DNA of 64,000 nucleotides from Candidatus Latescibacterota bacterium (lineage in GTDB: Bacteria; Latescibacterota; UBA2968; UBA8231). Positions within the stretch are counted from its first letter, which is position 1; each line of letters starts with the position of its first letter. The notes below the pieces were generated by a model. That model ran no database searches. It was not told the origin of the DNA and saw only the letters and a list, made by a program, of their open reading frames with translations. Shown here in pieces: positions 46,357-49,269 of the stretch. The stretch is taken from positions 864,001-928,000 of the forward strand of contig CBDCXV010000010.1 of the NCBI GenBank assembly GCA_965223905.1. The letters are read 5' to 3'. The translations under genes were made by a program, and so were the position numbers.

Positions 46357-47058
46357 ATGCTGATCGAGCTGAAAGGGATCGAGAAGGTCTACGAGATGGG
46401 GGCCGAGGACGTCCGCGCCCTGCGCGGCGTCGACCTCGACATCGAACGGGGGGAATACGCCGCCATCATGGGTCCCTCCGGGTCGGGCAAGTCGACGCTG
46501 ATGAACATCGTCGGATGCCTCGACACCCCGAGCGCCGGCACCTACCGCCTCAACGGCACGGACGTGTCGGAGATGAACGCCAACGAGCTCGCCGACGTGC
46601 GCAACCAGCAGATCGGCTTCGTCTTCCAGACCTTCAACCTGCTGGCCCGCTCCAGCGCCTTCCACAACGTCGAGCTGCCCCTGGTCTACGCCGGGACGAG
46701 GCGGGGGGAGCGCCGGGAAAGGACCGAGGCCGCCCTTGAGCGCGTCGGCCTGGCAGACCGCATGGACCACCGGCCCGCGGAGCTGTCCGGGGGGCAGAGG
46801 CAGCGCGTGGCCATCGCCCGGGCCCTCGTCAACGAGCCCTCGCTGCTGCTCGCCGACGAGCCGACGGGCAACCTCGACAGCCGCACCGGTGAGGAGATCA
46901 TGGGGCTCTTCGACCACCTGCATGCCGAGGGGAACACCGTCATCCTCGTCACCCACGAGCAGCATGTCGCCGGCCACGCCCGGCGCAGGATCGCCATCCT
47001 CGACGGCCTCGTGGCTTCCGACGAGAGGCGGGAAGGTCAGCCTGCCGACGGCTCCTGA
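46357..47058 (+). CDS. ABC transporter ATP-binding protein (MacB/LolD-like)
   Basis: [31 protein letters not shown]. Confidence 0.96.
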
Positions 47059-47321
47059 GGCCCGGCCCCGAGCTTGGCCAGGACGAAGTCGGCGATCGCG
47101 TCGGAAGTCTCGAACAGCTCGATGCGCAGCTCCTCGTCGTCGATCTCGAAGCCGAACTCCTCCTCCAGGCCGGCGATCAGCTCGAGCGATGCGACCGACG
47201 TGGCGCCCCCCTCACCGAAAAGCGGCTCATCGTCGGGAATCTCCTCCGGATCGACGTCGAGCCCGAGGGTTGCGGCGATCGTCCGCTTAACCCGCTTCCT
47301 CGTCTCCTCCCGCTCCAACAT
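47037..47321 (-). CDS. Acyl carrier protein-like protein
   Basis: Acidic 94 aa; LF...[30 protein letters not shown]. Confidence 0.85.
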
Positions 47322-49269
47322 CCTCCTGCTCCGGGTTCCGTGAAAAATGCGCGACCACCGCCTCGACCAGGCGGTCCTCCCCCGCTCTCGAAAGGATCGC
47401 CGCCGCGGGAATGCCGAAGCGGTCTTCGAGGCGGCGCAGGTTCCTGTCGATCTCCTCGCCCGACATCTGGCGCGGGGTGATCCAGCTCCGTCCGTAGGCG
47501 GCGCGGATGTGCTTCTCCTTGTCGCTCATGGCCAAGGCGATGGTCGGGGCCTTCGCCAGTCCGCGCAGGCAGGCGATGGTGTCCTCGATGTACTCCTCGG
47601 GGTCGATGCTGTTGACCACCAGGACGACGGCGTCCGGCCTGGTTCCGAGCAGGAAGGCGAGCGAGGTCATGGTGTGGGTCGCCGGGTGTTCGATGGCGTA
47701 GGGAATCGTCCCGGACTGACACCCCACCAGGATGATGTCCGGGCTCCGGAGATGGGCGATCTCCCGCATCTTGGCGTCGAGAAACGGGGCATACCACTGC
47801 AGCGGCAGCTCGAGCGGCGACGCGTACCCCATCGGGAAGGCGAAGTCCATGCCGAACAGGGCGGAGTGGTGCTCGGTGCCGACCTGGCCGACCGCGTATC
47901 CCGCCTCCTGCAGGCGCCGCCGAAGGGCCAGCTGCAGGGTGAACTTCCCCTGCTGCGAGCTGGTCCCGAACACCCCGAGCACCGGGACGTCGACGGCGCC
48001 GTACCGGCTCGACCGGCGCAGCAGCCCCTCGACCTCGGCGTTGTCGACCTTCGGGCTGGCGATCTTCAGGTTGCGGCGCCTGGCCTCGGCGTGCAGGTCT
48101 CCGTACTGCCCCGGGGGGACCGGAAGAAAGCTGAAGACGTGCAGCCCCGCGGCCAGGGCCGCGGCGACCGACTCCCGCAGGACGTCCCGCTTGCCGATGC
48201 GGCCCAGCTCGTCGACGTACCCCAGGATCAGCGTGTCCGCTCCGCGCAGGGCCGCCCCCAGCTTCGGGGAGATGCGGATCCCGACCGCAGGCAGCCCGAG
48301 GGCCTCGCCGGCATCCCCGCCCGCCAGCCCCTTGCCGGCGGGATCGGCAATGCCGACGACCTCGAAGTCGAGGTGTTTCAGGTGCCGGACCAGGCTGTGC
48401 ATCTCCTTGTTGAAGGGGTACAGGGCTGCCTTGCGGATCCAGCCCGGGAGGCCGCCTTCCCGGGGGCGCGGCGCCTGTTCCCGGGGGGCCGGTACCGGCC
48501 TTGCGCCCGCGGTTTCGGAAACGCGGGAGGCTCCCCTTTCGGCCAGAGCGTTCGCCTTCAGGACCTCGCGCACCTCCTCGATGCCTACTCCCGGGGAGGC
48601 TTCCCTTATGAGGGCGACGATGCCGCTGATATGGGGAGCGGCGAAGCTTGTCCCCGAGGTCATCACCTCGCGCGGCTGCAGCCAGCAGAGCCGCTGCTCG
48701 TCGCCGCGGGCGACGCACTCGATCGGCTTCCCTTCCCTGTAGTGATACCCGTAGCGGCCGCCGACCTTGCCGCCGGCTACCCCGATGACGTCCGGCAGGA
48801 CGGCCGGGTAGCTCTCCAGCCCCTCGTTGTGCTCCGCAGACACCAGGATGACGCCTGCGCCGGCCGCCTCCCTGGCCGTCTCGGCGAGAGGGCGGCGAAA
48901 GCTCGGGTCCGTGGTTCCGAGGCTGAGGTTGACGACGTCCATCCCCTCGTCCAGGCACCATCGCAGGGCCGCGACCAGGGCGCTTCCGTCGGCGCTGAGG
49001 GATTCGTCGAAGATGCCCACGCTGTAAATGGACGCGGCCGGGGCCTTCCTGAGGATGATCCCGGCGCAGGCGGTACCGTGGCCGGCCTTGTCGGCGACCT
49101 CCGCGGCCTGCTCGATCCCACCGTCCCCGCGGACCGACAGGGCGACCCCGCCGGCTACGCGGATCAGCGGATGCGTCGGGTCGACCCCGCTGTCGACGAC
49201 CGCAACCCTGATCCCGGCGCCGGTGAGGCTTTCGAAGGACAACTGCAGAGAGCTGGGCGGTGATGTCAT
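47287..49269 (-). CDS. S8 subtilisin-like peptidase fused to a DUF1611-like domain
   Basis: Triad VVDSG, GHGT, GTSFAAPH; C-terminal Rossmann-like part plus GTSSQQGKFT and LLGTRPDAVVL; no signal peptide. Confidence 0.85.
   Translation of the reverse strand: MTSPPSSLQLSFESLTGAGIRVAVVDSGVDPTHPLIRVAGGVALSVRGDGGIEQAAEVADKAGHGTACAGIILRKAPAASIYSVGIFDESLSADGSALVAALRWCLDEGMDVVNLSLGTTDPSFRRPLAETAREAAGAGVILVSAEHNEGLESYPAVLPDVIGVAGGKVGGRYGYHYREGKPIECVARGDEQRLCWLQPREVMTSGTSFAAPHISGIVALIREASPGVGIEEVREVLKANALAERGASRVSETAGARPVPAPREQAPRPREGGLPGWIRKAALYPFNKEMHSLVRHLKHLDFEVVGIADPAGKGLAGGDAGEALGLPAVGIRISPKLGAALRGADTLILGYVDELGRIGKRDVLRESVAAALAAGLHVFSFLPVPPGQYGDLHAEARRRNLKIASPKVDNAEVEGLLRRSSRYGAVDVPVLGVFGTSSQQGKFTLQLALRRRLQEAGYAVGQVGTEHHSALFGMDFAFPMGYASPLELPLQWYAPFLDAKMREIAHLRSPDIILVGCQSGTIPYAIEHPATHTMTSLAFLLGTRPDAVVLVVNSIDPEEYIEDTIACLRGLAKAPTIALAMSDKEKHIRAAYGRSWITPRQMSGEEIDRNLRRLEDRFGIPAAAILSRAGEDRLVEAVVAHFSRNPEQEDVGAGGDEEAG

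Follow-up and report, generated by a model that had tools for sequence, protein, structure and literature searches.

A subtilase–DUF1611 fusion and its overlapping carrier-protein gene in a Latescibacterota genome: candidate core of a leader-dependent peptide maturation system

DgcN is the only DUF1611 family with a functional name, and the acetyltransferase chemistry associated with it is taken here from the name of the NCBI model. QhpE, a subtilisin-like cytoplasmic protease encoded in the quinohemoprotein amine dehydrogenase operon, is the leader peptidase of QhpC. A subtilase (S8) domain and a DUF1611 domain are joined in a single polypeptide in the stretch of DNA analysed here – 64,000 nucleotides of Candidatus Latescibacterota bacterium (assembly GCA_965223905.1, contig CBDCXV010000010.1, positions 864,001 to 928,000 of the forward strand), referred to below as the window – and the fusion gene overlaps a second gene that encodes an acyl-carrier-type protein.

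DUF1611/TIGR04066 proteins and their partners resembling acyl carrier proteins (ACPs) have been listed among ‘peptide maturation systems’ without known chemistry. The SacP23 cluster of Paenibacillus polymyxa, an example of the CLI_3235 type (PMC10731318), encodes a precursor with a 19-aa leader and a 42-aa Cys-rich part, an extracytoplasmic function (ECF) sigma factor and an ATP-binding cassette (ABC) transporter, and, as separate genes, a TIGR04068 radical SAM protein, TIGR04066 and TIGR04069 proteins, and a subtilase; the paper guesses at an ‘immunity’ role for TIGR04066 and TIGR04069. The BtrH family (BtrH, CtaG and AdmF) consists (PMC7183216, PMC10318531) of carrier-protein-dependent, amide-forming papain-fold transacylases, of which the founding member BtrH acylates the aminoglycoside ribostamycin. 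Two further sources describe lipidated RiPPs (ribosomally synthesized peptides with post-translational modifications) made by GNAT acyltransferases (PMC8784127), and YknWXYZ, a four-component Bacillus pump protecting against the SDP toxin peptide (PMC4887032). No description of the fusion, its leader family or its chemistry was found in the openly searchable literature.

Here, we compare the window locus with these systems and with 78 loci encoding related fusions. Sequence comparison suggests that the fusion and carrier are, on balance, probably the conserved core of a leader-dependent, bacteriocin- or RiPP-like system of peptide maturation and export, akin to the CLI_3235/TIGR04066 system yet distinct. 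The two genes and their domains are:

47287–49269, minus strand: S8–DUF1611 fusion gene, 660 aa, defined by its Pfam domains
residues 17–247 (about nt 48529–49221), minus strand: S8 domain, PF00082 Peptidase_S8, 97.7 bits against a gathering score of 21.8, E 1e-27
residues 242–273, minus strand: disordered linker between the two confident domains of the AlphaFold2 model
residues 315–403 (about nt 48061–48327), minus strand: PF17396 DUF1611_N, 27.8 bits against a gathering score of 22.6
residues 425–635 (about nt 47365–47997), minus strand: PF07755 DUF1611, P-loop domain, 57.8 bits against a gathering score of 25
47037–47321, minus strand: acyl-carrier-type (PP-binding) gene, 94 aa, PF00550, 39.1 bits against 20.8, E 9e-10

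The domain matches of both proteins are far beyond chance. The fusion gene has coding-type composition, with a G+C content of 0.89 at third codon positions, in a window of about 68% G+C with many spurious frames around it; a 767-aa open reading frame (ORF) at 47177–49480 (minus strand) was rejected as a real gene, being an Arg/Pro-rich alternative frame. The two genes share a 35-nt overlap suggestive of translational coupling. The carrier gene also has 22 nt at its 3′ end in common with the 3′ end of the ABC ATPase gene (46357–47058, plus strand), which converges on it. In the carrier the motif T-S42-V replaces the usual D-S-L of ACPs, and Ser42, the phosphopantetheine position, is kept in at least 90% of 64 aligned homologues.

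The S8 triad Asp26/His64/Ser208 and the oxyanion Asn148 are all kept in the fusion; in an alignment of 22 sequences His64 and Ser208 are invariant, Asp26 and Asn148 are at least 90% conserved, and K442 and T444 of the P-loop (G-T-x-x-x-x-G-K-x-T) are also invariant. The motifs GTSSQQGKFT and LLGTRPD occupy residues 435–444 and 540–546. The N-terminus, MTSPPSSLQLSFESLTGAG, contains no hydrophobic stretch, as judged by reading and without a signal-peptide tool. An AlphaFold2 model built on a 22-row alignment (predicted local distance difference test score, pLDDT, 74.6; predicted template modelling score, pTM, 0.56) has two confident domains joined by the disordered linker. Foldseek matches the N-terminal half to subtilisins and the C-terminal half to 2G0T and 2OBN, both solved DUF1611 proteins (template modelling score, TMt, 0.73–0.74; E 6e-15 to 7e-14); by sequence, 2G0T is the sole solved relative of the C-terminal half (E 2e-6), and its deposited title is ‘putative nucleotide binding protein’.

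A sequence-only reading of this stretch had described a subtilase with an intact triad and no signal peptide, fused to a Rossmann plus P-loop-like domain bearing GTSSQQGKFT and LLGTRPD that it assigned to DUF1611, and an overlapping ACP-like gene with TSV in place of DSL and the serine retained, the pair converging on and overlapping the end of an exporter of Yip1, membrane fusion protein (MFP) and ABC components. All of this is borne out by the sequence, the DUF1611 domain being of a Rossmann-like plus P-loop kind.

Immediately ahead of the catalytic Ser, residues 166–206 of the fusion (48652–48774) form an insert peculiar to this family, in which Cys185, Cys195 and Trp196 are invariant; an invariant Cys68 adjoins the catalytic His. 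The insert has low pLDDT though its conservation is high; together with Cys68 it could be a substrate or metal site.

Among NCBIfam models, the N-terminal half best matches QhpE (NF049966; residues 21–242, 147.6 bits, under the cutoff of 165). The fusion resembles QhpE in its small S8 domain without a signal peptide and in the ABC exporter of the same operon, but differs in scoring under the cutoff and in bearing DUF1611 and the conserved insert. The C-terminal half best matches TIGR04066, and the expectation that it belongs to that family stands in part: the alignment covers model positions 2–358 of 361, but the 99.4 bits lie under the cutoff of 200. Membership of DgcN (NF041892) is not supported, the match being 25.2 bits against a cutoff of 480 and confined to residues 339–459; the fusion shares the DUF1611 fold with DgcN but lacks a D-glutamate pathway context.

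The CLI_3235 cluster is the described system most like this one. Common to both are a short-leader Cys-rich precursor, an ABC exporter, an ECF sigma factor, a subtilase, and DUF1611-type and ACP-type proteins, and TIGR04066 is the best C-terminal match of the fusion at near full model length. Because the subtilase and the TIGR04066 protein are separate genes in the P. polymyxa cluster, the fusion joins parts known to travel together. The differences are that subtilase and DUF1611 form one chain here, that TIGR04066 is matched under its cutoff, and that TIGR04069, named earlier in connection with the carrier, gives no match to it even at E≤5, where generic ACP models match instead. A radical SAM gene, described earlier as a usual companion, occurs in just 4 of the 78 fusion loci (L012, L041, L058 and L070), and a BtrH_N-like protein is usual instead.

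The fusion is widespread. A word-indexed search found 868 related proteins at E≤1e-3, and among the matches listed (120 of 868) nearly all are full-length fusions with 55–100% identity. A HMMER scan with the C-terminal 381 residues gave 1207 representatives, 330 of them at E≤1e-30; the best 150 of the 1207 are mostly 590–680 aa long, with the match in the C-terminal two-thirds, so that the fusion is the usual architecture down to about 30% identity, and a few matches of 364–418 aa resemble stand-alone DUF1611 forms. Sixteen distant relatives, eight stand-alone and eight fused, all match TIGR04066 under its cutoff (47–119 bits), and all eight fused ones also match QhpE under its cutoff, with QhpE as top N-terminal and TIGR04066 as top C-terminal family, the pattern of the window protein. 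Named relatives in the distant-member search come from Bacillus cereus, Lysinibacillus, Paenibacillus, Tumebacillus, Virgibacillus, Alkaliphilus and Clostridium perfringens, and the annotations of these proteins go no further than ‘S8 family serine peptidase’ or ‘DUF1611 domain-containing protein’; since the system also occurs in cultured Bacillus, Paenibacillus and Clostridium, experiments are feasible. A genome-contig scan with the fusion yielded the 78 loci (from the best 80 of 126 confirmed stretches), of which 67 are from Latescibacterota, eight from Gemmatimonadota, one from KSB1 and two from ‘uncultured bacterium’, a spread biased by search patterns drawn from an alignment in which Latescibacterota predominated. 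At least two fusion loci lie on each of 13 contigs, and in uncultured Latescibacterota the system is multi-copy, with up to six loci on one chromosome.

Neighbourhood ORFs were clustered by all-against-all BLASTP, and the clusters were named via Pfam and NCBIfam. The proposed linkage of fusion homologues to an ACP gene is clear in this survey: the carrier gene is present in 64 of the 78 loci, or 64 of 72 once the six of the 14 misses that are contigs ending at the fusion are set aside, and in 59 loci it shares the strand of the fusion and is no more than 300 bp away. In the 58 loci that reach 15 kb, an ABC exporter (571 aa, with transmembrane and nucleotide-binding domains and without a peptidase domain) occurs in 48, a HlyD adaptor in 41 and a BtrH_N/DUF4872-like papain-fold protein in 42. 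The best families of the exporter are MsbA (top), HlyB and the NHLP/bacteriocin exporters. Fusion, carrier, MsbA/HlyB-type ABC protein, HlyD, BtrH_N-like protein and leader-bearing small ORFs with hypervariable cores make up one operon in these relatives.

Carrier and BtrH_N-like genes tend to occur together (41 loci of at least 15 kb have both, 12 the carrier alone, one the BtrH_N-like gene alone and four neither; Fisher p 0.018, without correction for relatedness). One BtrH_N-like subgroup, c12, matches Pfam BtrH_N at 44.4 bits and also DUF4872 and Peptidase_C39_2; a second, c8, is related to it by profile–profile comparison (probability 90%, E 1.6e-6). At least 43 of the 45 members keep a His and an Asp; where the nucleophile is expected, c12 has Cys25 in 17 of 17 members, and c8 has a Ser one residue further on in 27 of 28. 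As with BtrH, CtaG and AdmF, a small carrier stands beside a BtrH_N/DUF4872-like protein with conserved His and Asp and, in c12, Cys25. The system would differ from theirs in using a ribosomal peptide as the acceptor and DUF1611 as the loader, in place of an ATP-grasp or adenylating enzyme; moreover, the nucleophile position of c8 is Ser, and the window gene is a remnant only.

The operons are of several types, which the grouping in a quick tree of 67 fusions follows. One has TPR, CPBP protease and GNAT companions; a second combines Redoxin and rhodanese with propeller lipoproteins of the NHL type and has a downstream RND pump; and a third has AhpC and Yip1, followed in L003, L004 and L006 by Yip1, HlyD, MacB and ABC ATPase genes on the same strand. 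MacB as well as RND pumps are thus present in fusion loci, and three loci (L057, L065 and L072) have a minimal HlyD–fusion–carrier layout. In 13 loci the gene immediately upstream of the fusion encodes a GNAT, a point of likeness to the RiPPs lipidated by GNAT enzymes, in which an acyl group is likewise added to a ribosomal peptide; the enzyme families differ, however, and there is no sign of lipid at the fusion loci.

Two further neighbours recur. Downstream of the fusion in L038, L043 and L045 (about 11000–17800) are two to four tandem paralogues, lipoproteins that are about 400 aa long and bear NHL/six-bladed-propeller repeats, interleaved with leader-bearing peptides; the Redoxin/rhodanese loci have related propeller genes upstream. 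In 15 loci, of the L014–L069 type (e.g. L030, 2766–3410), the carrier and the BtrH_N-like gene flank a gene for a conserved protein of 214 aa, c18; it has no Pfam or NCBIfam match, and a search of the ESM Atlas gave unnamed clusters only.

Upstream of the exporter, on the same strand, are small ORFs with a shared N-terminus, roughly of the form M-(K/R)-x-L-x-K-(K/P) ... (I/V/L)-x-A-Y-x-x-E, from which a hidden Markov model (HMM) of 24 positions was built. Its seeds were the 60 hits of a regular expression, less five with tails of at least 200 aa and 14 removed by eye (seven per strand), which left 41. The HMM gives 46 hits at E<0.01 in 38 of the 78 loci (36 of the 58 loci of at least 15 kb), all on the strand of the fusion and 41 upstream of it; three hits are duplicate artefacts, two are new non-seed ORFs, and the 14 ORFs removed by hand do not return at E≤10. 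Independent support for a leader family comes from tandem paralogues with one leader and different cores in L069, L038 and L045. The cores are of three kinds – about 50 aa with four Cys, Gly/Ala-rich and hydrophobic with a terminal Cys, or Cys-free and at least 100 aa long – and 20 precursor candidates gave no convincing match to NCBIfam models. A predicted complex of the L041 fusion with its cognate 73-aa precursor (score 0.25, mark 0.32) carries no weight either way.

Twelve of the 46 cores have a Cys within their last three residues, which, with the family-specific insert and its invariant Cys185, Cys195 and Trp196 beside the catalytic Ser, would suit an S8 domain acting as a ligase or transacylase, with Ser208 taking the carrier thioester in the manner of engineered peptiligases, or as a PatG-like cyclase. 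The S8 domain does show weak PatA/PatG matches, of up to 52.7 bits among the relatives tested. Its best family, however, is the leader peptidase QhpE, and the peptiligase structures matched by Foldseek are mutants of subtilisin BPN′ that share the common fold only; we regard such a role for the S8 domain as very unlikely.

A related locus occurs in a cultured bacterium. On Bacillus mycoides plasmid p539 (L079, 6647–12448) the genes are annotated, in this order, as ABC, PP-binding, two peptides of 44 aa, fusion, DUF692 and further hypothetical proteins, among them a partner protein of DUF692. The DUF692 protein matches BufB (231 bits) and HvfB (207 bits), RiPP maturases of the multinuclear non-heme iron-dependent oxidative enzyme (MNIO) class, in both cases under the cutoff, and the two peptides are near-identical, with MKK.LKKP...VTLYMGE followed by a CGTGC core. 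The locus is apparently an undescribed MNIO RiPP cluster. The leader-bearing ORFs and ABC exporters of related loci, together with this Bacillus maturase, support the earlier view of the fusion and carrier as part of a peptide-maturation module.

Several observations weigh against a conserved core for peptide maturation and against the role proposed for its BtrH_N-like partner. All NCBIfam matches that hint at function fall under their own cutoffs. Eight loci have DNA downstream of the fusion and no carrier, and in five of these a substrate-binding protein, a histidine kinase and a sigma-54 regulator follow the fusion. The BtrH_N match of c8 is under the Pfam cutoff, and c8 has Ser in place of the nucleophile Cys. 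The strand bias of the leader is partly circular, because the seeds came from our own regular expression and 14 hits were removed by eye; 20 of the 78 loci are counted as having no leader hit though most of them have long flanks, and the HMM does not detect the p539 peptides, whose likeness to the leader is by eye only. The window itself contains no precursor-like ORF detected by the leader HMM in any frame of its 64 kb at E≤10, no c4-type ABC exporter over the same 64 kb, and only remnants of a BtrH_N-like gene. Finally, the KSB1 locus (L070, 2–10188) encodes an epimerase/dehydratase, a DegT aminotransferase, a radical SAM/SPASM protein, the fusion, the carrier, three GNATs and a DAHP/NeuB-like synthase, a sugar-type context unlike that of the other loci.

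This KSB1 context, a glycosyltransferase-like gene (c63) in seven loci and the acylation of an aminoglycoside by BtrH are what would be expected if the module acylated a non-peptide acceptor, such as an amino sugar or glycan, as BtrH does ribostamycin. L070 is, however, one locus of 78, and the protease domain would have no evident role there; leader-bearing ORFs and peptide-type exporters dominate elsewhere, and the Bacillus context is that of an MNIO RiPP cluster. A non-peptide acceptor is accordingly highly improbable in our view.

For a system acting on peptides, the following order of events can be proposed. The S8 domain, whose best match is a leader peptidase, would remove the leader near the conserved A-Y. 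The trio of DUF1611, carrier and BtrH_N-like protein would then most likely act on the newly exposed N-terminus, because the cores differ so much that the trio should act on what all substrates share. The P-loop DUF1611 domain may use ATP to charge the holo-carrier with a small acyl or aminoacyl group, a role suggested by the invariant P-loop, by the title of 2G0T and by the finding that no adenylating or ATP-grasp enzyme recurs in the neighbourhoods. The BtrH_N-like enzyme, or DUF1611 itself, might pass this group on to the amine of the peptide, in the manner of BtrH and CtaG, and the ABC/HlyD pump would export the product. That fusion and carrier form such a thiotemplated tailoring cassette for ribosomal peptides, with DUF1611 as ATP-dependent loader and the group joined to the freed N-terminus, is a tentative proposal and somewhat doubtful as a whole. 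If true, it would mean hybrid ribosomal and carrier-protein chemistry, with DUF1611 a new kind of ATP-dependent loader, in a cassette that recognises a previously undescribed leader family and is combined with interchangeable radical SAM, MNIO and thiol oxidoreductase enzymes across Bacillota, Latescibacterota, Gemmatimonadota and KSB1.

The sequence-only reading had placed the transfer step elsewhere, with DUF1611 as a DgcN-like N-acyltransferase that puts an acyl-ACP group, in place of acetyl-CoA, on the N-terminus that S8 cleavage exposes, the product being a lipo-RiPP. Such a scheme has both activities on one chain, with the carrier gene overlapping the fusion gene; the NCBIfam family of DUF1611 that is named ‘N-acetyltransferase DgcN’ matches residues 339–459, if weakly; the top NCBIfam family of the exporter is the lipid flippase MsbA, and MacB and RND pumps occur in the loci; and 12 of the 53 carrier-bearing loci of at least 15 kb have no BtrH_N-like gene, so that transfer is apparently possible without that enzyme. 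Against it stand the DgcN score, far below its cutoff, and the invariant K442 and T444 of the P-loop and the title of 2G0T, which point to nucleotide use. In addition, no acyl-ACP synthetase, acyl-ligase, fatty acid synthase, polyketide synthase or AMP-ligase gene recurs among the neighbourhood clusters scanned, which leaves the ‘lipo’ part without direct support, and a candidate transacylase of the BtrH_N type is present in 42 of the 58 longer loci. We consider a DgcN-like acyltransferase unlikely; for the transfer step the BtrH_N-like protein is no worse a candidate than the DUF1611 domain, and may be a better one, and acylation from acyl-ACP is something that we can still only infer.

Returning to the conserved core as a whole, the protease and DUF1611 are now seen to be usually one chain, the carrier is tightly linked, a BtrH-like third member is frequent and a leader marks the substrates. 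What had been an annotation curiosity thereby becomes a set of testable steps, namely what loads the carrier, which group is loaded and where on the peptide it is placed.

In the window, the pair stands beside an exporter and the traces of former partners. The exporter genes, assigned with Pfam and NCBIfam, are:

41394–42116, plus strand: Yip1/YknW-like membrane protein (YknW_fam 72.5 bits, cutoff 110)
42198–43868, plus strand: HlyD-type adaptor (MFP)
43900–45129 and 45126–46349, plus strand: two MacB-type permeases
46357–47058, plus strand: ABC ATPase

This set (41394–47058, plus strand) has the layout of a YknWXYZ-like four-component exporter and is convergent on the carrier gene. It shares with Bacillus YknWXYZ a Yip1/YknW-like protein, a HlyD-type adaptor, a MacB-type permease and an ABC ATPase, and differs from it in having two permease genes, in a YknW_fam match under the cutoff and in converging on the module. 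The same Yip1–HlyD–MacB–ABC ATPase set in L003, L004 and L006 lies downstream of the fusion on the same strand. Because the set recurs with fusion loci and resembles YknWXYZ, it may be the export or immunity pump of the fusion system; for the window pump an immunity role is possible by analogy.

Upstream of the fusion are:

49453–49774, plus strand: remnant of a BtrH_N/DUF4872-like gene, found as tblastn pieces, divergent from the fusion
49799–50449, minus strand: sigma-70 region-4 (ECF-like) protein, 216 aa, encoded on the strand of the fusion and upstream of it, conserved only in L001
50620–52072: insertion of 1.45 kb without an L001 counterpart, by blastn against L001
50667–51074, minus strand: IS630-family transposase fragment inside the 1.45-kb insertion

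L001, the closest relative, is 88–95% identical to the window at the DNA level over the aligned region, and its BtrH_N-like gene, which diverges from the fusion, is intact (391 aa). Of this orthologue the window remnant keeps only about residues 1–26 and 304–346, about 850 bp having been deleted, and blastn synteny breaks at L001 6792–7644. The ratio of nonsynonymous to synonymous substitution rates (dN/dS), calculated between the window and L001 with an in-house Nei–Gojobori script, comes to 0.19 over the fusion (S8 part 0.22, DUF1611 part 0.16) and to 0.18 over the carrier, as compared with 0.09–0.41 for the other genes; fusion and carrier are under purifying selection. The L001 fusion gene (8001–9983) has a 1-nt frameshift in the linker, at about residue 258, that would split the S8 and DUF1611 ORFs and may be either a real split or a long-read assembly error.

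The deletion of the BtrH_N-like gene and the nearby IS630-bearing insertion raise the prospect that the window copy is a decaying relic without present function. The lack of a precursor and of a dedicated exporter in 64 kb, the frameshift in L001 and the long branch of the window copy (0.52) in the quick tree would all agree with this. Both ORFs are intact, however, with all invariant family residues kept; the dN/dS values of the pair are within or below the range of the neighbouring genes; L057, L065 and L072 are likewise minimal; and with up to six copies per genome in the group, work in trans is possible. We judge a functionless relic to be quite improbable. The window copy is instead a stripped, eroded one, in which the usual partners have been lost and the core pair is still selected, so that erosion of the locus can be seen to proceed while its core stays under selection; because only the fusion, the carrier and the YknWXYZ-like pump remain, it would have to work in trans with another locus or with reduced function.

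The minimal, fragmented system proposed earlier is therefore what the window holds, with precursor and exporter missing and the BtrH_N-like gene in remnants, and the statement that the window has neither a radical SAM gene nor a convincing precursor was also confirmed. Among the 46 window ORFs scanned there is no match to the Radical_SAM Pfam model, to the TIGR04068 radical SAM or TIGR04065 precursor models or, in Pfam and NCBIfam, to the qhp genes (QhpC and the radical SAM protein QhpD). One window ORF of at least 100 aa contains CxxxCxxC (11608–12030, plus strand, 140 aa), and it lies inside another gene.

Further minus-strand genes upstream of the fusion encode a GFO/IDH oxidoreductase and a class-III aminotransferase, and at 54804–58408 there are two adjoining long TldD/PmbA-like metallopeptidase genes (600 and 590 aa), near the fusion in none of the 78 loci. 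The sigma factor, GFO oxidoreductase, aminotransferase and TldD/PmbA proteins were dropped as parts of the system, being near the fusion in only 0 to 6 of the 78 loci. Elsewhere in the window, a stretch of lower G+C content (0.54–0.61) at 6709–13469 carries ankyrin-repeat, RelA/SpoT-domain, GmrSD_N (DUF262) and AAA_15/DUF3696 ATPase genes, and an AbiEii nucleotidyltransferase is encoded at 21974–22891; together these look like a defence island.

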